This document shows positions 52,783-61,667 of a stretch of DNA of 64,000 nucleotides, piece by piece. The DNA lies in the NCBI RefSeq assembly GCF_044324785.1, contig NZ_CP172127.1; one strand, written 5' to 3'. The number at the start of each line of letters is the position of its first letter. The stretch's first letter is position 1. A program made the translations under genes and the position numbers. Origin of the DNA: Escherichia coli. GTDB taxonomy: Bacteria > Pseudomonadota > Gammaproteobacteria > Enterobacterales > Enterobacteriaceae. The notes beneath the pieces are model-generated. The model made no database searches and was not told the origin of the DNA. It worked only from the letters and a program-made list of their open reading frames with translations.

Positions 52783-53379
52783 TCAGTGGGAGTGGTGGCT
52801 GGAGTTTTCGCCATCAGACAACATACTGCCCGTGGCATGGGCATTCCCTTTAATCTCGATATTGCCATGGATGGTCGCGGTAACACCTTCACCACCAGAA
52901 CCCGCCATGCCTCCTTCGTAAATCAGCTTACCCCTGACACGCAGATCTCCGGTAAGTTCGGTTTCCGGTGCGTCAATCGTGGCTTTCTGTGTTTTCAATA
53001 CCACATCAGCACCACACTCAATGACAATATGCTCAATGCCGCCCCGGATGATCAGAGTGTGCGTCTTCCGGTTGTAGCTGTACTCTGCACCATCAGCAAA
53101 CCGGGTTCCCCGGATATTTTTGTCACTGAACGGTGGTTTATCGACGTCTGAATACACCGCGCCCAGAATAACACCATCCTCGCCGTTGGCATCGAGCAGC
53201 ACCTCAACCTGCTCCCCCACGTCAGGGAGCCAGTAATCTTTGTTATCCTGGGTATTGCGCTGCAGCACGTTAAGCCAGTTTGTGCGCAGGTTATCGCATT
53301 CAGGCAGACGAACGCGGGCCTGAACCCTGTCGGCATCAACGGCACTGACCGTACCGACCTGACGAGTGACACCAGTCAT
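52783..53379 (-). CDS. phage baseplate assembly protein V (spike)
   Basis: 198-aa ORF with OB-fold-like N-terminus and glycine-rich C-terminus. Confidence 0.65.
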   Translation of the reverse strand: MTGVTRQVGTVSAVDADRVQARVRLPECDNLRTNWLNVLQRNTQDNKDYWLPDVGEQVEVLLDANGEDGVILGAVYSDVDKPPFSDKNIRGTRFADGAEYSYNRKTHTLIIRGGIEHIVIECGADVVLKTQKATIDAPETELTGDLRVRGKLIYEGGMAGSGGEGVTATIHGNIEIKGNAHATGSMLSDGENSSHHSH

Positions 53380-54548
53380 TTTTTCTTCTCTCTTATTACT
53401 GTGGACGTGCTGCCGTCCGGTTTATAGATGGTCAGCATCCGGGTTTTGCCGATTTTTTTACCTTTCTTCGCCTTGCCCTGTGTGATCGGCCCCCGTGCCA
53501 CTTCCAGCTCTGTGGTGTAGCCGCTGTTACGGTCAAACGCATGGCGGGCAGTGGTTATGAGCCATGGCCCGGATAACTGCCCAAAACCCACCAGTTCAAT
53601 TTTGTTGCCTGCTGTCAGTTGAGGTGTTCCCGTCAGCGTCAGGGAGCCGTTCTGCTGGTATTCGTTATGTCTGGCCAGTGCTGAATCCGCTTTAATCCGG
53701 GCACTGTCCGGGTCGCTGACGCGGCTGTTAACTTTAAGTGAGTCAGCGCTGGTAACCTTACCACCTTTGAGCTTTTTGTCGCTTTCACGGGTACCACCAT
53801 CAGCTTCGTAGACGATCAGTTTTTTACTGCTGCTTTTCTGGTGTTTTACCTTTGCAGATTTATAGACCCGGTTGATGGTGTCACGCAGGGAAAAGCGGGC
53901 CACATCCTGCGGTTTTAACTGCCTGACCGGCTCCTGACTGCGCAGTGTGGCCAGATGAGAAAAAATCAGCTGGTCACTGACCACTTTCACTGCATAACCA
54001 TACTCGCTGGCCAGCCGGCGCAGAAAACCCACGTCGGTTTCAGCATACTGGGTCACCCGGTCGATTCTGATGGACTCAATGCTGCCCACCAGTTTCAGCC
54101 GGTGCTTTCTGGCAATCCGCCCCGCAACAGCTGCCAGCGTGGTGTTCTCAAAACCACGACTGGTTTTAGTCCGCAGGGCACTGTTAACCGAGGTGGCCAC
54201 CCCACGGATAGAAACAACGGAAGCGGGCGAACTCACTTCGATCTCGTCTATAGAGAACGTACCGCAGGACAGCAGCTTCTCGTCCTGATAGCCCATTTTC
54301 AGCGTCAGCGTGTCACCCTTGCCCGGATACCACTTATCCAGCCAGCGGCCATCGGTGTCGTCCAGCTCCACCTCAATGGTATCGGACTCATTTTTGATGT
54401 TATCGCTCCAGGTCACACGGGTGACATAAGGCGCGATATCAGAGGTGATGTTTTTCTGCAGATACCACAGAGTGAACACCGGTGTCAGCACATCGCTGAC
54501 GCCGGTTAACGCTGATGTGACTTGCGCAGTGCTGTTTATCTCAGCCAT
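53376..54548 (-). CDS. phage tail protein (P2 gpD / Mu P-like, late control D family)
   Basis: 390-aa ORF between the X/U-like and V-like genes. Confidence 0.65.
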   Translation of the reverse strand: MAEINSTAQVTSALTGVSDVLTPVFTLWYLQKNITSDIAPYVTRVTWSDNIKNESDTIEVELDDTDGRWLDKWYPGKGDTLTLKMGYQDEKLLSCGTFSIDEIEVSSPASVVSIRGVATSVNSALRTKTSRGFENTTLAAVAGRIARKHRLKLVGSIESIRIDRVTQYAETDVGFLRRLASEYGYAVKVVSDQLIFSHLATLRSQEPVRQLKPQDVARFSLRDTINRVYKSAKVKHQKSSSKKLIVYEADGGTRESDKKLKGGKVTSADSLKVNSRVSDPDSARIKADSALARHNEYQQNGSLTLTGTPQLTAGNKIELVGFGQLSGPWLITTARHAFDRNSGYTTELEVARGPITQGKAKKGKKIGKTRMLTIYKPDGSTSTVIREKKK

Positions 54549-54751
54549 GGGGCAATATCCTCTTCTGTACGGGCTTCTTCAGCCTCAATCACCGGGATCA
54601 GTAACAACAGCCCGGAGGGCAGCACCGGCGTGATGGCCACGTGCGGATTGGCGGCAATAATCCGGGGATAGCCCAGCGGGTCACCGTAGTACTGCCATGC
54701 CAGCGAATCCCAGCGCTCTCCGTCACGGGTAACATGTTCAAGAAACATCAC
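54536..54751 (-). CDS. phage tail protein X-like (small LysM-like tail protein)
   Basis: 71-aa ORF overlapping neighbours in the tail operon. Confidence 0.55.
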   Translation of the reverse strand: MMFLEHVTRDGERWDSLAWQYYGDPLGYPRIIAANPHVAITPVLPSGLLLLIPVIEAEEARTEEDIAPWLR

Positions 54752-55632
54752 ACACTCCTCGTCAGTATTCTGGCGGCCATTGCACTTAATCCCGGAGACA
54801 TGCGGTTGAATGCTGTTCCGACGGCGTTAAGCTGCCCGGAAACGGTATCCAGAGCACCTGCAATATTTCTTTTGTCCACACCACTCAGCGCAGACTGTGC
54901 CTGCTGTACATACGTGGCTGCTTCGCTGGCTGTTCTGGCCAGACTGATGGCATCGGGCATGGATTCAGAGAGTGCGTTAAACGCCGGAACACTTTTCCCC
55001 AGAGCCCCGGAGATATTACCCAGTCCGCTCATCAGCCCCGGCACACGGGTCAGTGCGACAACGGGGTTATCCTTCATTTTCTGTGTCACCCGAACGGCGC
55101 TGATAGTGGTCTGGAGTACAGACTGCGCCTGTTTCGCATAGTTGACGCCGTTGCGGATGAACTGCGCCACCCCGGAAGGTGAAGGAATGGCACCGGAGAC
55201 CGCCCCGACACCCGGGAGCTTCGTGCGTATTGCCGGTGGTTGCAGAGGATTTTTCGGGTCACCGGTGTATTCCCGGAGAGACACGGTGGCACTGACAGCC
55301 AGCACGTTGCCGGTACTGTCAGTCTGCTCGCTGGTTGCAGTCACATCGGTAATCACGAACCAGCCGCGATAGTCACCGTTGCCGAAGACCAGCGCCAGTG
55401 CCTGATGGGCTTTCATGGCTGTTCGCAGTCTCGCCAGCTCCACATCGGGTACACAATAATGCTGATGGAAAACCAGAGTTATCTGGATTTCGTCCAGCCT
55501 GTCGCCGACGAACTGCAGGCCAGGCTTACCCCCGATGCGGGCATGCTCCGCATAATCGACGCCGAACGTGGCCTCGAAGCCGTCCCAGTAGGTAATCAGC
55601 TCAAACTCAATATCACCCAGTACGGCAAACAT
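54748..55632 (-). CDS. phage tail protein (gpU-like N-terminal domain with C-terminal extension)
   Basis: 294-aa ORF immediately after the tape measure gene; ...GDYRGWFVITDV... resembles gpU. Confidence 0.55.
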   Translation of the reverse strand: MFAVLGDIEFELITYWDGFEATFGVDYAEHARIGGKPGLQFVGDRLDEIQITLVFHQHYCVPDVELARLRTAMKAHQALALVFGNGDYRGWFVITDVTATSEQTDSTGNVLAVSATVSLREYTGDPKNPLQPPAIRTKLPGVGAVSGAIPSPSGVAQFIRNGVNYAKQAQSVLQTTISAVRVTQKMKDNPVVALTRVPGLMSGLGNISGALGKSVPAFNALSESMPDAISLARTASEAATYVQQAQSALSGVDKRNIAGALDTVSGQLNAVGTAFNRMSPGLSAMAARILTRSV

Positions 55633-58600
55633 CAGCGGTACTCCTTACGTTGTTTCTGAGCCAGCAGACGCTCCAGCATTTTTTCCAGCTCATGCAGACT
55701 CATATTCAGGGCACCAGTCAGTCCTGCAGGCGCTGTGGTTTCCCTGCCATTGAGGAAAAACTGAGGATTAAAGCTGACCTGGATACCACCAGACGTTCCA
55801 CCGCCGGTTGCAGCTGCACCACGGCCTGAATATCCGGCAGCCAGGATTTCAGGCGAGGGGATACGGGGAACATCCGGTGTCATCTCATTTGCCAGACGTT
55901 GCCCTGGTAAAATCGATGCCCGGGTGGAGAGCGGAATAACGGGCATGGAAGACAAACTATTGATTACGGCTCCGATCGCATTTTTAGCAGACGACATAAA
56001 CCCATTGATATCGGGCAACGGCATACTGAAGCGAACACCTGAAGTGTTATCCCGTATTTCTGGCCCCTGAATGCTCACGGGCATTCTGGGGAGCAGTTCA
56101 CTGGCCATTCGCTGCCCGGCCAGAGCTGCAAGCGGAGTGGTCCGCTGCAGGCCAATGGCGGCCCCCTGCGCGATATTGTCACCAAAGCCCATAAACACGC
56201 GGCTCGGCGAATGAATGCCCAGCTTTTCGCTGAACCAGCCACTGATGCTGTCACCCATTCCGGTTACACTGGATTTGAGCGACTCCCATTTGTTTTTGAT
56301 ACCGTTAATCAGACCGTCGACAAGATGGCCACCGAAGTCGGTGAACTTTGCCGGCAGATCAACACCAAGATATTTCAGCGCAGCTGCAAAGGCTTTATAG
56401 AGCAGACCTGCCGGCGACCAGTTAATCAGCAGCTTACCAGTTCCCGCGATACCGCCGTTAAAGGCTTCCTGAATGTCAGCCCAGCACTGTTTAAACCAGC
56501 TACTGATGCTGTCACCCATTCCGGTTACACTGGATTTGAGCGACCCCCATTTGTTTTTGATACCGTTAATCAGACCGTCGATAAGATGGCCACCGAAGTC
56601 GGTGAACTTTGCCGGCAGAGCAACGCCGAAATATTTCAGCGCAGCCGCAAAGGCTTTATAGAGCAGGCCTGCCGGCGACCAGTTAATCAGCAACTTACCA
56701 ATTCCCACAATGCCGCCGTTAAAGGCTTCCTGAATGTCAGCCCAGCGCTGTTTAAACCAGCTACTGATGCTGTCACCCATTCCGGTTACACTGGATTTGA
56801 GCGACCCCCATTTGCTTTTGATACCGTTAATCAGACCGTCGATAAGATGGCCACCGAAGTCGGTGAACTTTGCCGGCAGAGCAACGCCGAAATATTTCAG
56901 CGCAGCCGCAAAGGCTTTATAGAGCAGGCCTGCCGGCGACCAGTTAATCAGCAACTTACCAATTCCCACAATGCCGCCGTTAAAGGCTTCCTGAATGTCA
57001 GCCCAGCGCTGTTTAAACCAACCACTGACAGCCCCCCAGTTGCGGTAGATAAGGTAAGCTGCTGTCGCGACAGCGGTGATAACGAGACCGATGGGATTCA
57101 TCATCAGCGCTCGCCCAATCCAGAGAACGGCACGTGCAGCGCTCATAAAACCGCGAACGAGGCTGCCCGCCAGAACTTTGCTGAGTTTCAGTCCTCCGCT
57201 GGTCAGTCGGCTGAATCCAGTGACAAGCCAGCGTAATTTGCCACCTTCTCCGAGTGCGGTAGTCAGTCGATGCCAGTTGGTCCGGAGTAAAACAGTAGTT
57301 TTCCAGACGTTCACAAAGGGGGAAATAAGGAGATTCAGCCCCAGTTTGAGACCAATAGTCGCTATCTTAATCGCAAGGAGCGCACTGATGAGCTTAAAAG
57401 CCCCACTGACAAATTGCGGGTGAGTCGCTACCCAGTGTTTTGTCCCCTGAATGAGTGGGAGCAGTTCCTGAGTCAGAGAAATAAAAGATGGAGCTAATTG
57501 ATCGCCCAGCGTAATTGCCAGATCGCGACTGCTGACCATAAGTGTTTTAGTGGCTTCAAGGGGAGATTTCAGCCGCTGATCATAAGCACTGGCAAGCAAA
57601 TCGTTATCCGCAGCCCTGAGAGCACCGGCACGGATCTCTCGATATCTGTCCATGTTGGCCAGCATCGGGCGGATAAATGCCATGACCTGCATATCCGCGA
57701 ACATATCGCCCAGACCAAAGTTTTTCGCCAGAGCCTGAAGTGCCTCATCTCTTGCCGTATCATTCTTTATTTTCATGGCTGATTTGAAGCCGGCCAGCGC
57801 TTCGGGGCTTTTGGCATTGAGGTAACGTTCTATAACACTCAACATCCCTTCAATCGGAGAGATCCCCGCAGCTTTATAACTCGCAATAGATCCCTGCAAA
57901 TCAATACCCAGATCAGCAAACTGTTTCTGAGTATCGCGGGCAAAAATTTTGGTAAGAAAGTTTTTAAAATTATTGGCTGCTTCGTCGGTGGAACCTGCAC
58001 CGATTTTTGCTATCTGGAGACTGGCCCCGATTTCAGCAACAGCCTCTTTTCCACTGGCAAGACCCGCCATCATTGGGGCCAGGGACTGCATCCACTTGAC
58101 CTGATCCGGGATTTCAAATGACCCCTGGTCACCGGCATAAGCCATAATATTCTGAACGGCACCAAAATCTCTGGCCGCACCTTTCAGGGAGTTTTGCCAG
58201 ACTGCGGCCACTTTTGCCCAGTCCTGAGCAGACGTGCGTGTTGCCGTTGCCGCGCGGGCAATATCCGGCATCAGAAAACCGATATCTGACACATTATCAA
58301 TATTGTCGCTGATGAGTGAACCCACCGCCTCCTGCAGCTCATCCTGATACTGATTGTATTTAAGCGCCCAGCCTTTTATCTGTCCGGCAAGTGCATCCCG
58401 CGTTTTATTGTCATATTTTGCGGTGATCGACATATCAATCATTTTGTCCTGAAAAGACATGGACTGCTGAACGGCAGGGGAAACCGTATGATAAACAGTC
58501 TGTGCCATGCCATACGCTTCAATCCCCTGACCATACAGCGCCATGCGGTTAGCTTTCAGCGCATCACTGGTAGCGGATGCCGCTGACAGACGGCGCTGCT

Positions 58601-58844
58601 GGCGCTCAATTTGCTCCATGGTGCGGCTTACCCGCAGCAGCTCGCTGTTGAGATGCTGCATCCGGGAAGAACCCAGTTGACCATAACGTTCTGTTGCACG
58701 GGTTAAAGCGTTCTGACGTTCCTGCAGGCGGCGTGAGGTATCGCTCAGGGAATCAAGCGCACGGCGGGTACCGCTCATTGCAGAACGGAATGTGCTGCCA
58801 ATCATCCCGCCGATAACAACGCCGACTGAAAACTGTCCCGACAT
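55632..58844 (-). CDS. phage tail tape measure protein
   Basis: 1070-aa ORF with coiled-coil N-terminus, hydrophobic segments and internal tandem repeats, downstream of the chaperone pair. Confidence 0.85.
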   Translation of the reverse strand: MSGQFSVGVVIGGMIGSTFRSAMSGTRRALDSLSDTSRRLQERQNALTRATERYGQLGSSRMQHLNSELLRVSRTMEQIERQQRRLSAASATSDALKANRMALYGQGIEAYGMAQTVYHTVSPAVQQSMSFQDKMIDMSITAKYDNKTRDALAGQIKGWALKYNQYQDELQEAVGSLISDNIDNVSDIGFLMPDIARAATATRTSAQDWAKVAAVWQNSLKGAARDFGAVQNIMAYAGDQGSFEIPDQVKWMQSLAPMMAGLASGKEAVAEIGASLQIAKIGAGSTDEAANNFKNFLTKIFARDTQKQFADLGIDLQGSIASYKAAGISPIEGMLSVIERYLNAKSPEALAGFKSAMKIKNDTARDEALQALAKNFGLGDMFADMQVMAFIRPMLANMDRYREIRAGALRAADNDLLASAYDQRLKSPLEATKTLMVSSRDLAITLGDQLAPSFISLTQELLPLIQGTKHWVATHPQFVSGAFKLISALLAIKIATIGLKLGLNLLISPFVNVWKTTVLLRTNWHRLTTALGEGGKLRWLVTGFSRLTSGGLKLSKVLAGSLVRGFMSAARAVLWIGRALMMNPIGLVITAVATAAYLIYRNWGAVSGWFKQRWADIQEAFNGGIVGIGKLLINWSPAGLLYKAFAAALKYFGVALPAKFTDFGGHLIDGLINGIKSKWGSLKSSVTGMGDSISSWFKQRWADIQEAFNGGIVGIGKLLINWSPAGLLYKAFAAALKYFGVALPAKFTDFGGHLIDGLINGIKNKWGSLKSSVTGMGDSISSWFKQCWADIQEAFNGGIAGTGKLLINWSPAGLLYKAFAAALKYLGVDLPAKFTDFGGHLVDGLINGIKNKWESLKSSVTGMGDSISGWFSEKLGIHSPSRVFMGFGDNIAQGAAIGLQRTTPLAALAGQRMASELLPRMPVSIQGPEIRDNTSGVRFSMPLPDINGFMSSAKNAIGAVINSLSSMPVIPLSTRASILPGQRLANEMTPDVPRIPSPEILAAGYSGRGAAATGGGTSGGIQVSFNPQFFLNGRETTAPAGLTGALNMSLHELEKMLERLLAQKQRKEYR
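56200..57010. repeat. 261-bp tandem repeats (3 copies) inside the tape measure gene
   Basis: near-identical 87-aa units SSWFKQRWADIQEAFNGGIVGIGKLLINWSPAGLLYKAFAAALKYFGVALPAKFTDFGGHLIDGLINGIK; antisense ORFs at 56215, 56473, 56734. Confidence 0.85.
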
Positions 58845-58919
58845 AGTGGTTAACCTCCGGGGAAGGTGAAAAGACGTGAGGGGATAACGCAGAACAGCCG
58901 CTACTGGCGGCTGTCTGTA

Positions 58920-59177
58920 CTATGATTTGTCGCCGTACTCGCTTTTGATTTGCTCTTCAGCCTGCTCCAGCCACATCTCCAGATCGTCAGTATCGAGGGC
59001 ATCAATCTCCCCCGGCTGAAACCGGAACCATCTCGCCAGCAGCCCCTGCGCCTGCGTCAGCGCCCTGGTTGCTCTCACCCATCCCCGTGATGAGCTGAAA
59101 TCGTTTCTGTAACTGCAGGTAATCAGCCAGATCCATATTGTCGAGATCTTCCGGGAGAAGACCAGTACTGCGGGCAA
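58920..59177 (-). CDS. tail assembly chaperone frameshift extension (GT/E'-like), probable programmed frameshift product
   Basis: 85-aa ORF overlapping the 3' part of the 111-aa chaperone ORF in another frame. Confidence 0.4.
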   Translation of the reverse strand: MPAVLVFSRKISTIWIWLITCSYRNDFSSSRGWVRATRALTQAQGLLARWFRFQPGEIDALDTDDLEMWLEQAEEQIKSEYGDKS

Positions 59178-59337
59178 TCAGCGGTTCGTCCCAGTCTGCC
59201 GGGTTTTTGCTGATTTTGCGCACCTGCTTCAGGTCTTTTACCGTCAGGCGTTTCAGTTCAACCAGCTCAATTCTGGTGCCTGCAGCAGTGGTGAAGGGAT
59301 AAGACAATTTAAAAGTATCGGATGGGGTCTGTGACAT
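59002..59337 (-). CDS. tail assembly chaperone (G/E-like)
   Basis: 111-aa acidic ORF immediately upstream of the tape measure gene. Confidence 0.55.
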   Translation of the reverse strand: MSQTPSDTFKLSYPFTTAAGTRIELVELKRLTVKDLKQVRKISKNPADWDEPLIARSTGLLPEDLDNMDLADYLQLQKRFQLITGMGESNQGADAGAGAAGEMVPVSAGGD

Positions 59338-59434
59338 GATTGTGCTCCTGTGTAAGTTCAGGGCAGTATGTCGGGAGAAGCGCGTGACGGATATTAAAGG
59401 AGATTAAGAAGAAGGGGCCGGAGCCCCTGTGATG

Positions 59435-59716
59435 TCAGCAAGTGCGAAACCCCTTGCAGTTACGCAGGAAAGCGATGAGAAGCGTCTTTCCCTCAGATTT
59501 GCCGATGCCGGAGAACCAGTGGTCGGGAGGCTCCCATGCTTCAATCAAATCCGCCAGTTTGCGGGCCTTTGAACGTGTGCAGTCAATCGGGTCATTGGTT
59601 TTACGGGTATTAAAAAGGGTTTCCACCCCCGGAATATCAAGGAGGGTAAACCACGTACCATTTGACATGCCCAGTGCCGCACATCGTCCTCCTTTATCCG
59701 TCAGTTCAACACTCAC
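59435..59716 (-). CDS. hypothetical phage tail-module protein
   Basis: 93-aa ORF between the tube gene and the chaperone genes. Confidence 0.4.
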   Translation of the reverse strand: MSVELTDKGGRCAALGMSNGTWFTLLDIPGVETLFNTRKTNDPIDCTRSKARKLADLIEAWEPPDHWFSGIGKSEGKTLLIAFLRNCKGFRTC

Positions 59717-59718
59717 CG

Positions 59719-60240
59719 TCAGCCCCCGATATTGATACGGTAGTCAGTCAGTTGATCAACACCGCCGACCCGGAAGATGTTGGCCAGATAGTCCAGTTGC
59801 AGCAGCTCTTCACCATCCAGTACCTGTCTGATATACGTGCAGGTGAAGCTACTGGAGAACTCGGCGTTCTCGTGCTGTTTGAACGTCCCCAGCGGGTTCT
59901 TCTTGAACATAATCGTCAGGAAGGTGACCAGCGGGATTTCGTCAATCAGCCCCTGCGAGCTGTAGCGCTGGACGCTGGAACGACACTGCAGTGCCAGCGA
60001 CCTGTACGGGTTCGCGGCAGACAGCATCGCATCGCGGTAAAAGCTGTTCCATTTGATTTCGCCTTCCAGCTTGTCAAAACCAGCCGGGAGTTCCACCTTA
60101 CCCACCATCCCCAGCGCCTTGTGTTCCTGCATAATCATGGAGACATCGGGGAGTTTGACTTCCTCAGCCCGTCCCAGCAGGTTAGTACCATCCAGATAGA
60201 TGTTGGCATTCGTGATGCGGTTTATCTCAATCTTTGACAT
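59719..60240 (-). CDS. phage tail tube protein
   Basis: 173-aa ORF directly downstream of the sheath gene. Confidence 0.75.
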   Translation of the reverse strand: MSKIEINRITNANIYLDGTNLLGRAEEVKLPDVSMIMQEHKALGMVGKVELPAGFDKLEGEIKWNSFYRDAMLSAANPYRSLALQCRSSVQRYSSQGLIDEIPLVTFLTIMFKKNPLGTFKQHENAEFSSSFTCTYIRQVLDGEELLQLDYLANIFRVGGVDQLTDYRINIGG

Positions 60241-61667
60241 CAGTTGCCCCCTTTCAGGGTTAACAGGTATTCCGAGGTGATCTCAGTCTCAAACGTCAGT
60301 CGCTCCAGCGGCGGTGGTGGCGTATATTTGTAGCTCAGCAACAGGTGCCCGGCGGCCAGCTCCGTCTCCGGATTGCGGGCCGGATCAAACCAGCAACGGA
60401 AGCCCAGTACCGCACCATCACCAGTCATTTTGCGACCGTAGGCGTTGACCGACTCCGTCAGTGCATCAATCAGCGCCTGAGTAATCGGCATGTCGATGTA
60501 CTGCTGGCTGAAATAACGAATGGACTCGTTGATCACATCACCGGTGCGGCGAACGTTCTCAAAGTTACGCATATGGGTGACCGTTGGCCATGCTGCCGTC
60601 CGGTTACCCCACAGACGAAGGCCGCTGCCGTAACTGCTGAATACCGTGGTGATCCCCTGTTCGTTAAGCAGGTTCACCTCACTCTGCGGGTCATCAATCA
60701 TCGCGGACAGCTGGCGCTCCACGCCGGTGATCCCCAGAATCTCCTGATTGGAGGATGACCACCAGTAGCCCTTGTCCAGATCGACTCTGGCACGCAGACC
60801 TGCTGCACGCTGGCTGAGCGGCTCCAGACGCTCTGTGTTTGTCACCGGGTCATATACCTTCACATGCGGATAGCACAGACGGACGCGGTCGGAGCTGGTA
60901 TTGAAGTTGATGGTGCCTTCCGGGCCACGACCTGCCAGAGCCTGTGCAAAGGTGGTACCGACAGGCGCATCAATGTAGGTTACCGCGCCCAGCTTCTCTG
61001 CCATGGCGATAAGCTCAACTGCGACACTCTTCTGGGTGCAGAACACCGGCGCAATCAGAATTTTGGCGAAATAGCCGTACAGGTTGAAGCTGTCGTTAAG
61101 CAGCTTCATGCCGGTTCGGTTTCCGGCGCTGTTCACCCCGCCGATGATGTCCGCCGCAGTCACCTTCGACGGGTCCGCGTACTCATAGCTCACCTTCACG
61201 CTGCCACCGGCCTCAATAGCCTTGCCCAGGTTCGTGAGCACACCCGCCTGCGCATCAACACGGTAGTCCGTGTTCGCCGTGTGGGTGGTGCTGCCTTCAC
61301 TGTTTTTCACCACCACATTAGCGACAACCGGATGCGCCAGTCTGGCCTGCCCTGTCGATTTGTCAAAGGTAACCACCTCATCCTCGATCGCCGTTTTATG
61401 TTTCGCCGGGTCGAGGACGTTAATGACCAGAACGGTGCCTGCACCATGGTCATAAATCGCATCCAGCGCCTGCGGAATGGTAAAGCCGGTGAACTGGCTG
61501 CCAAATGCCGCTGCGTCTTTCTCAGACAGGCACTGTACCAGCGTATTGACATCCCCCATCGGGGCGGTACCAATCAGGCCAATAACGGCAGATTTCACCG
61601 TTTTAACCGGGCGGGCACCGTTTTCCACCTCAATGGTTTCGGGACCATGCAGATAGTTAGCTGCCAT
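60240..61667 (-). CDS. phage contractile tail sheath protein
   Basis: 475-aa ORF MAANYLHGPETIEVENGARPVKTVKSAVIGLIGTAP..., followed by the tube gene. Confidence 0.85.
   Translation of the reverse strand: MAANYLHGPETIEVENGARPVKTVKSAVIGLIGTAPMGDVNTLVQCLSEKDAAAFGSQFTGFTIPQALDAIYDHGAGTVLVINVLDPAKHKTAIEDEVVTFDKSTGQARLAHPVVANVVVKNSEGSTTHTANTDYRVDAQAGVLTNLGKAIEAGGSVKVSYEYADPSKVTAADIIGGVNSAGNRTGMKLLNDSFNLYGYFAKILIAPVFCTQKSVAVELIAMAEKLGAVTYIDAPVGTTFAQALAGRGPEGTINFNTSSDRVRLCYPHVKVYDPVTNTERLEPLSQRAAGLRARVDLDKGYWWSSSNQEILGITGVERQLSAMIDDPQSEVNLLNEQGITTVFSSYGSGLRLWGNRTAAWPTVTHMRNFENVRRTGDVINESIRYFSQQYIDMPITQALIDALTESVNAYGRKMTGDGAVLGFRCWFDPARNPETELAAGHLLLSYKYTPPPPLERLTFETEITSEYLLTLKGGN

Follow-up and report, generated by a model that had tools for sequence, protein, structure and literature searches.

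The window analysed here, a stretch of 64,000 nucleotides (nt) from Escherichia coli (assembly GCF_044324785.1, contig NZ_CP172127.1), carries a BcepMu-like prophage with a Mu-type head and a P2-type contractile tail. Directly before its tape measure gene lie two listed open reading frames (ORFs) on the minus strand, ORF1 (59002..59337) and ORF2 (58920..59177), which overlap in different frames. ORF1 and the distal part of ORF2 are a tail assembly chaperone pair of the E / E+E' type. The long product of this pair is probably made by a few ribosomes that slip into the +1 frame at CGA_UUU_C, a reading to which we give a probability of about 0.75. By sequence comparison the pair belongs to the frameshift-coupled chaperone class and to PF10109, and it appears to differ from P2, lambda, and Mu in using UUU_C in the +1 frame. 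The two overlapping ORFs had already been pointed out in an initial annotation of the window, and their coordinates and the 176-nt overlap (59002-59177) were confirmed.

The analysis established which genes these are, how their frames are related, how they are conserved, and where the frame switches. ORF1 matched PF10109 (Phage_TAC_7, tail assembly chaperones E, 41, and 14) over residues 8-81 at 74.8 bits (E=5.5e-21), above the 25-bit gathering threshold. Residues 1-80 make up the folded core, and residues 81-111 are a variable Gly/Ala-rich tail read in the zero frame. The C-terminus of ORF2 scored 14.7-15.8 bits (E=0.01-0.022) against PF06528 (Phage_P2_GpE, the E' peptide), below the threshold of 23 bits; the E' of a Salmonella relative was also sub-threshold, at up to 20 bits. 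The E' of the window is not a PF06528 member by the Pfam rule, and yet it is likely a distant relative of P2 E', because the resemblance recurs from lineage to lineage and the peptide can be aligned with P2 E+E'. The E' region also matched phrog_8286 (E=3e-33), which spans residues 87-138 of the 138-residue fusion described below. No NCBIfam model matched the fusion or E', and no solved structure matched the pair by sequence.

The pair is located 75 nt upstream of the tape measure gene and downstream of the sheath and tube genes. The tube gene, ORF1, and the tape measure gene follow in this order, all on the minus strand, as in other frameshift-coupled chaperone pairs. The initial annotation had proposed that this was a G/GT (E/E') chaperone pair in its conserved position, produced by -1 frameshifting. 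The PF10109 match, the E'-like C-terminus, and the gene order support the pair and its position. The direction of the shift does not stand: relative to ORF1, ORF2 is in frame +1 (= -2) and not -1 (59337-59177 = 160 = 1 mod 3).

Relatives were collected by tblastn with a trial fusion, which returned two-piece matches down to 39% identity, and then from 53, 80, and 80 IMG/VR loci together with reference phages. Two scans of approximately 215 related loci contained 173 distinct sequences. Close and mid-distance loci numbered 138 (59 distinct sequences), and every one had E' in the +1 frame; among more distant loci the count was 75 of 79. In total, 213 of 217 related loci had the conserved E' ORF in +1. 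E' was in the -1 frame in P2, in Pasteurella phage AFS-2018a, and in four IMG/VR loci; the Mu extension, unrelated to E', lies in the +1/-2 frame.

Nucleotide alignments revealed that the variation across GLLARWFRFQPGEIDAL… sits at third positions of the +1 frame, including CGG/AGG/AGA switches at Arg. The same changes, synonymous in +1, move or create ORF1 stops, and ORF1 is 90, 104, 106, 109, or 111 amino acids (aa) long among close relatives. The +1 frame is therefore translated, from upstream of the earliest ORF1 stop. The ratio of nonsynonymous to synonymous polymorphism (pN/pS) over the 120 nt before UUU was 0.31 in the zero frame versus 1.27 in the +1 frame. Directly after UUU, in the linker, the values were 0.98-1.43 in the zero frame versus 0.56-0.60 in the +1 frame, and farther along the +1 frame they were 0.06 over GLLARWF and 0.34 over the remaining E'. 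Purifying selection in +1 was limited to the last ~58 codons of ORF2 (59096-58920, pN/pS 0.06-0.6). The first ~27 codons of the mechanically defined ORF2 (59177-59097) are the off-frame of the conserved ORF1 core, with a +1 pN/pS of 1.27, and the translated part of ORF2 is probably 58920-59096 only. In a Pseudomonas-type clade the pN/pS of the core and of E' behaved as in the enteric set.

The zero-frame tail of ORF1 appears dispensable, since premature zero-frame stops have arisen in two independent prophage lineages while the +1 frame stays open. In one of them (L019/L080) a CAG-to-TAG change at codon 91 is silent in +1; in the other (L135/L140) the +1 frame is open across a TAA located 8 codons after UUU.

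Comparison of these sequences places the frame switch, in all probability, at CGA_UUU_C: five kinds of evidence all point to ORF1 codons 79-80, CGA_UUU, and the C that follows (59103-59097). In 52 gap-free enteric sequences, Arg-79 was CGA in 52/52 and Phe-80 was TTT in 52/52. All other invariant degenerate residues in this set varied synonymously over 2-5 codons (Asp was GAC in 23 and GAT in 29, Leu had 4-5 codons), and CGA makes up only 8 of 125 Arg codons in the prophage tail genes. All 114 distinct +1 sequences had TTT followed by C at the core end, even where the host is G+C-rich; the codon contexts include, for example, GTG TTT CGG, TCC/GCC TTT CGC, and TGG TTT CGC/CGT. Four lineages with E' in the -1 frame carry TTT ACG at the same position. 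The conserved shift sequence is thus of the UUU_Y +1 type, a zero-frame UUU followed by a pyrimidine in all +1 lineages (UUU_C at 59100-59097 in the window), and not an X_XXY_YYZ heptamer.

Stop codons in the relatives bracket the same place. The +1 frame opens at differing positions, as late as 8 nt before TTT, and in the Ralstonia and Pseudomonas types a +1-frame stop is found 8 nt upstream of UUU. On the other side, ORF1 ends 5 codons after UUU in one lineage (L212), 8 codons after it in L135/L140, and 10 in L019/L080. The stops in these lineages confine the shift to between ~8 nt upstream and 5 codons downstream of UUU. Fusions built at UUU_C could be aligned through the junction, both among themselves and with P2 E+E'. 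In this alignment F80, L93, P108, E110, L114, and W122 were at least 90% conserved, and in most lineages a Trp followed 3-6 residues after the Phe.

Three further motifs were considered as shift sites and rejected. GCC_GGG_GGA_G (59016-59007, near the ORF1 stop) was examined as a Mu-like -2 or prfB-like +1 site and rejected because many relatives end ORF1 21 nt earlier (GTG GTT TAG) and the +1 residues upstream of it are the most conserved. In GGG_G at 59046-59043, taken as a +1 site, the fourth base varies (G/C/T/A) as a third position of the +1 frame. The shared GCT_GCT/GCG motif, also present in Mu, allows no tRNA re-pairing and encodes the conserved Leu-Leu of E'. Database proteins of 129-194 aa that appear 'fused', including some of 138 aa, were uninformative for locating the junction; their junctions fall at varying homopolymer runs (G3, A5, G5), some with two frame changes. 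These public versions of the chaperone gene are almost certainly products of sequencing or assembly indels and are mistakable for natural in-frame fusions.

We infer the ribosomal nature of the switch, its +1 (not -2) direction, its efficiency, and the role of CGA from these data and from known systems. Most ribosomes would stay in frame 0 and release the 111-aa chaperone with its disordered tail, and a small fraction would shift +1 at CGA_UUU_C. At this point the peptidyl-tRNA-Phe (anticodon GAA) would move from UUU, paired with a G:U wobble, to the overlapping UUC, where a G:C pair forms. Alternatively, Phe-tRNA could be accepted directly on UUC while CGA is in the P site. The outcome would be a 138-aa protein (…LQKRF-SSSRGW…GLLARWFRFQPGEIDAL…) with an added helical E'-like domain. 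Of the mechanisms compatible with all lineages, +1 slippage of peptidyl-tRNA-Phe from UUU to UUC is the simplest. If the pair works like lambda G/GT and P2 E/E+E', the shared N-terminal domain would coat or bind its presumed client, the tape measure protein of 1070 aa. The rare long form would recruit tube subunits and so link the tape measure to the tube protein, which is presumed to be the binding partner of the E' domain, as for lambda T.

Sites of the form UUU_Ynn are described as 'especially prone to +1 frameshifting' in bacteria, with a probable example in YopN-TyeA, and tailed phages use -1, -2, or +1 shifts for this chaperone gene pair (PMC5009743). In SEA-PHAGES annotations 350 forward shifts stand against 2368 backward ones (PMC10274946). 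UUU_Y sites of the influenza PA-X type require no 3' RNA structure, and RNAalifold gave a consensus of -0.99 kcal/mol with 0 covarying pairs over 100 nt around the site in 18 diverse sequences. The downstream RNA structure anticipated by the initial annotation was accordingly not conserved, and the slippery heptamer that it had expected in the overlap was missing as well, with no in-phase X_XXY_YYZ within 59002-59177. Its proposal that the pair is recoded fared better: the comparative evidence strongly favours recoding over a separate gene, and only the type of signal and the direction differ from what had been proposed. Absence of a heptamer had been offered as a refutation; read literally, this test would have wrongly rejected recoding here. 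Overlap searches limited to X_XXY_YYZ would miss or wrongly reject +1 cases of the UUU_C kind.

The codons flanking UUU followed a sharp pattern among the 114 distinct +1 sequences. CGA was directly 5' of UUU in 66, with CAR, CAT, or CTG on the 3' side, and CGN was directly 3' of UUU in 47, an arrangement that recalls PA-X; one sequence had both flanks. Two had neither Arg flank (GCG TTT CAG and ACG TTT CAA). CGA is decoded by tRNA-Arg(ICG) through an I:A pair. We consider it possible, though doubtful, that the invariant 5' CGA is itself the frameshift stimulator: the I:A pair of tRNA-Arg(ICG) in the P site would push aside the first U of the codon in the A site, letting Phe-tRNA bind UUC. In yeast Ty3, CGA is among the few codons able to substitute for GCG at a site of '+1 without slippage' (PMC5009743). 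When CGA occupies the P site of the yeast ribosome, the leading nucleotide of the A site is flipped toward the P site and the A/P kink is placed one base downstream (10.1101/755652), the geometry needed to read U-UUC as UUC. The yeast case differs in that it concerns eukaryotic ribosomes only, and CGA-CGA or CGA-CCG pairs, so that the role of CGA here is put forward as a hypothesis. If it were true, natural selection would have produced in bacteria an equivalent of the +1 frameshifting that CGA induces in yeast and of the 'frameshifting without slippage' of Ty3, and the near-exclusive 5'-CGA / 3'-CGN pattern would indicate that the stimulus can come from an Arg CGN codon on either flank of UUU.

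The products were modelled with AlphaFold. For the 138-aa fusion the mean predicted local distance difference test score (pLDDT) was 88.4 and the predicted template modelling score 0.77; residues 81-130 scored 85-94 and were predicted to form four helices. For the 111-aa zero-frame product the core had a pLDDT of ~86 and the tail 39-63. Foldseek searches with the fusion model gave no match in the PDB. The best matches in BFVD were phage tape measure or tail assembly chaperones of similar length, for example a 137-aa protein of Burkholderia phage Mica (E=1.2e-4).

Several observations weigh against +1 slippage at CGA_UUU_C. UUU_Y sites of the PA-X type have a slow or CGN codon 3' of UUU, and the A-site codon in the window is CAG, which is not slow; the usual +1 stimulator is absent. 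The proposed role of CGA rests on the yeast structures (10.1101/755652) and on Ty3 genetics. The multiple sequence alignment behind the fusion model was built from our own predicted fusions at the proposed junction. In the linker of the Pseudomonas-type clade pN/pS was 0.90 vs 0.79 and did not discriminate the frames, and the sequences are phylogenetically related, so that the counts overstate their independence. Finally, a GTG with a G-rich GGGG stretch upstream is present in the window at 59078-59076, and annotators and gene callers have called such ORFs (phrog_8286).

The GTG and the called ORFs would suit an E' that is an independent small protein translated from its own start, such as this GTG, with no recoding; BcepMu gp42 is annotated as a separate coding sequence. 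We regard this explanation as improbable. ORF2 overlaps the 3' end of ORF1 by 176 nt, and no start codon is conserved for it: between the site and LLARW, start-like codons occur at nine different positions and are missing altogether in 3 of the 52 enteric sequences, and 45 of the 52 lack a start with a Shine-Dalgarno-like 4-mer upstream. An independent start would also give no reason for CGA_UUU_C to be invariant, for a Trp to be conserved 3-6 residues after F, for stops to bracket the site, or for selection to switch frame at UUU. In P2, moreover, E' is made only as a fusion (P2 record annotation; PMC3931495).

A -2 frameshift would lead into the same frame with one extra aa. It is used by the homologous pair of Mu (CGG_GGG_CGA), whose extension lies in the same relative frame (PMC5009743, PMC3498833), and could act here at the G5 run GCC_GGG_GGA_G or elsewhere. 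The window does contain a Mu-like C_GGG_GGA_G, Ralstonia phage YO107_2 has one (GGC_GGG_GGA_G) upstream of LLARW, and in two lineages with TTT_TTT_C a -2 re-pairing is possible. Against this, the G5 run is downstream of the most conserved +1 residues (GLLARWFRFQP, pN/pS 0.06) and, in the 104-aa variants, downstream of the ORF1 stop. The G runs are not conserved (GGGN), there is no homopolymeric run at the switch, and no -2 re-pairing is available at CGA_UUU_C, GUG_UUU_C, or UCC_UUU_C. A -2 event as the source of the long product is thus very unlikely. A minor second shift at 59007-59016, distinct from the main site, would yield a protein of 138-139 aa without GLLARWFRFQP.

Transcriptional slippage, known to give similar two-product systems in some bacteria (PMC5009743), and a chance overlap without function, which does arise for ORFs of ~85 aa, are both hardly credible: the switch has no homopolymer but U3, which is much too short for a polymerase to slip on, the longer runs (A5, G5) lack conservation and attract sequencing errors, and chance is excluded by the purifying selection that acts on the +1 frame across hosts as distant as E. 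coli and Burkholderia. Gene pairs of this kind are most often expressed through a canonical -1 programmed frameshift on X_XXY_YYZ (PMC2628397, citing Xu et al. 2004), and this mechanism would agree with the frame of E' in the P2 and AFS-2018a homologues, but it is next to impossible here, where the frame arithmetic and the conserved +1 frame of E' refute it, the open -1 stretch of ORF1 is short and unconserved, and the sole in-phase heptamer, A_AAC_CCG (59206), falls outside the overlap.

Of the known systems P2 gpE / gpE+E', in the FETUD tail operon, is the most similar. It shares the PF10109 core, and its tail genes likewise run sheath, tube, E/E', tape measure, U, X, D; the E' peptides can be aligned (…ADVAVIFHWPPSEL… with …LLARWFRFQPGEI…); and the shift occurs at the same place, a Phe codon at the core end, giving a long product of 142 aa in P2 and a predicted 138 aa here. 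P2 differs in shifting -1 on T_TTT_TTG (PMC3931495), where the present pair has E' in the +1 frame and CGA_UUU_C as the conserved signal, and in a zero-frame tail of 7 aa after the site, against 31 here. Lambda gpG / gpGT is encoded at the same place before the tape measure gene and yields an abundant short and a rare extended form (about 30:1, PMC5009743), neither of which is found in the virion. It has no sequence similarity to the present pair, it shifts -1 at G_GGA_AAG, and the tail is that of a siphovirus and not contractile. The Mu gp41 pair (-2, about 2.2%) also has its second ORF in the +1/-2 relative frame before the tape measure gene (PMC3498833). Its CGG_GGG_CGA run permits -2 re-pairing, whereas the BcepMu-like family has only UUU_C, which allows +1 only, and the Mu extension is not similar to E'.

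The candidate site itself resembles UCC_UUU_CGU of influenza A PA-X, which has the same UUU_C, a P-site tRNA-Phe that moves from UUU to UUC, low efficiency, and no RNA structure (PMC3498833). The same tetranucleotide occurs at the +1-prone UUU_Ynn sites of bacteria, the argI error site of E. coli and YopN-TyeA of Yersinia (PMC5009743). The motif in BcepMu and its relatives, UCC_UUU_CGC or UCU_UUU_CGU, comes close to that of influenza. Unlike PA-X, the window and all enteric relatives have CAG/CAA and not CGN on the 3' side, and an invariant CGA before UUU; the host is bacterial, and the product is a virion assembly factor. In BcepMu (NC_005882) gp41 is the homologue of ORF1 and gp42 that of the +1-frame E' ORF. 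The GenBank record (803-1564) pairs gp42 and gp43 as a 'lambda G / T-equivalent' slippage pair; the comparative data instead suggest pairing gp41 (PF10109) with gp42 via UCC_UUU_CGC. The gp43 frame has the look of G+C-rich DNA read out of frame, and the E. coli prophage contains nothing that corresponds to it.

The features of the locus are listed in Table 1. All neighbouring genes share the strand of the pair, and together they make up a contractile-tail module of the P2 type. The region was 100% identical to prophages of E. coli chromosomes, being present in 640 of 5426 complete genomes (~12%), and 99.9% identical to Escherichia phage PhiKM, classified in Bcepmuvirus. A BcepMu-like prophage is ancestral in S. 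Typhimurium (PMC7302871). At the ORF pair RefSeq annotates ORF1 only (WP_000084213.1, 'phage tail assembly protein'), and ORF2 is uncalled. The RefSeq locus tags of NZ_CP029747 skip from BEN53_RS17090 (tape measure) to RS17100 (chaperone), which suggests that a feature, possibly the E' ORF, was once called and then dropped.

Table 1. Positions of the chaperone pair, the proposed shift site, and the surrounding tail genes in the window.
Feature	Position	Strand	Description
ORF1, tail assembly chaperone, short product	59002..59337	-	111 aa, ATG start; equivalent of P2 gpE / BcepMu gp41
ORF2, mechanical ORF	58920..59177	-	85 aa, TTG start
+1-frame segment after the shift	58920..59096	-	58 codons + TAG stop (SSSRGWVRATRALTQAQGLLARWFRFQPGEIDALDTDDLEMWLEQAEEQIKSEYGDKS); linker and E'-like domain of the predicted 138-aa long product
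Proposed +1 shift site CGA_UUU_C	59097..59103	-	CGA 59103-59101, UUU 59100-59098, C 59097; ORF1 codons R79-F80 and the next base
Tape measure protein gene	55632..58844	-	1070 aa, PF10145
Tail tube gene, P2 FII-like	59719..60240	-	PF04985, E=2.9e-53
Tail sheath gene, P2 FI-like	60240..61667	-	PF04984/PF17482
93-aa ORF	59435-59716	-	separates the tube gene from ORF1
gpU-like gene	54748-55632	-	P2-type tail module
Tail protein X gene	54536-54751	-	P2-type tail module
gpD-like gene	53376-54548	-	P2-type tail module

Some further observations concern the sequences around the pair. The 93-aa ORF is a RefSeq hypothetical protein (WP_000110114.1) that matched phrog_1239 (E=5e-48) and, weakly and below the cut-off, DUF7739. 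It is followed by a terminator-like hairpin, AGGGGCTCCGGCCCCT, with a T-rich tail at 59413-59428 (minus strand); in the Salmonella relative the gap from tube to chaperone gene is 52 nt only. The insertion may represent a moron or may attenuate the tail operon from within. The 75 nt that separate the E' stop from the start of the tape measure gene contain a strong hairpin at 58890-58917 (minus strand), CAGACAGCCGC-CAGTA-GCGGCTGTTCTG; the 81-nt segment 58845-58925 had a minimum free energy of -24.4 kcal/mol (z = -4.08 vs shuffles). The hairpin has no T run and is therefore not a canonical terminator, and diverged relatives have a similar element, ACAGCCGC, after E'. Within the tape measure gene, positions 56233-57028 hold 3 tandem copies of a 261-nt (87-aa) unit that are 96% identical, and a change in copy number would alter tail length.

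The long form of the chaperone is normally essential for tail assembly, and it is unannotated in RefSeq for this prophage family, in phage PhiKM, and in Klebsiella phage KP12. In the literature searched we found no description of a UUU_C site for BcepMu-like phages, although an earlier description is possible. The biology is otherwise that of a routine phage feature, with the invariant CGA left unexplained. The flanking-codon pattern (CGA 5' or CGN 3') is sharp and easily mutated, and would be useful for recoding research. The BcepMu-like family would thereby offer a clean, widespread, and so far unannotated natural UUU_C +1 site in bacteria, in a tractable host and close to that of PA-X.

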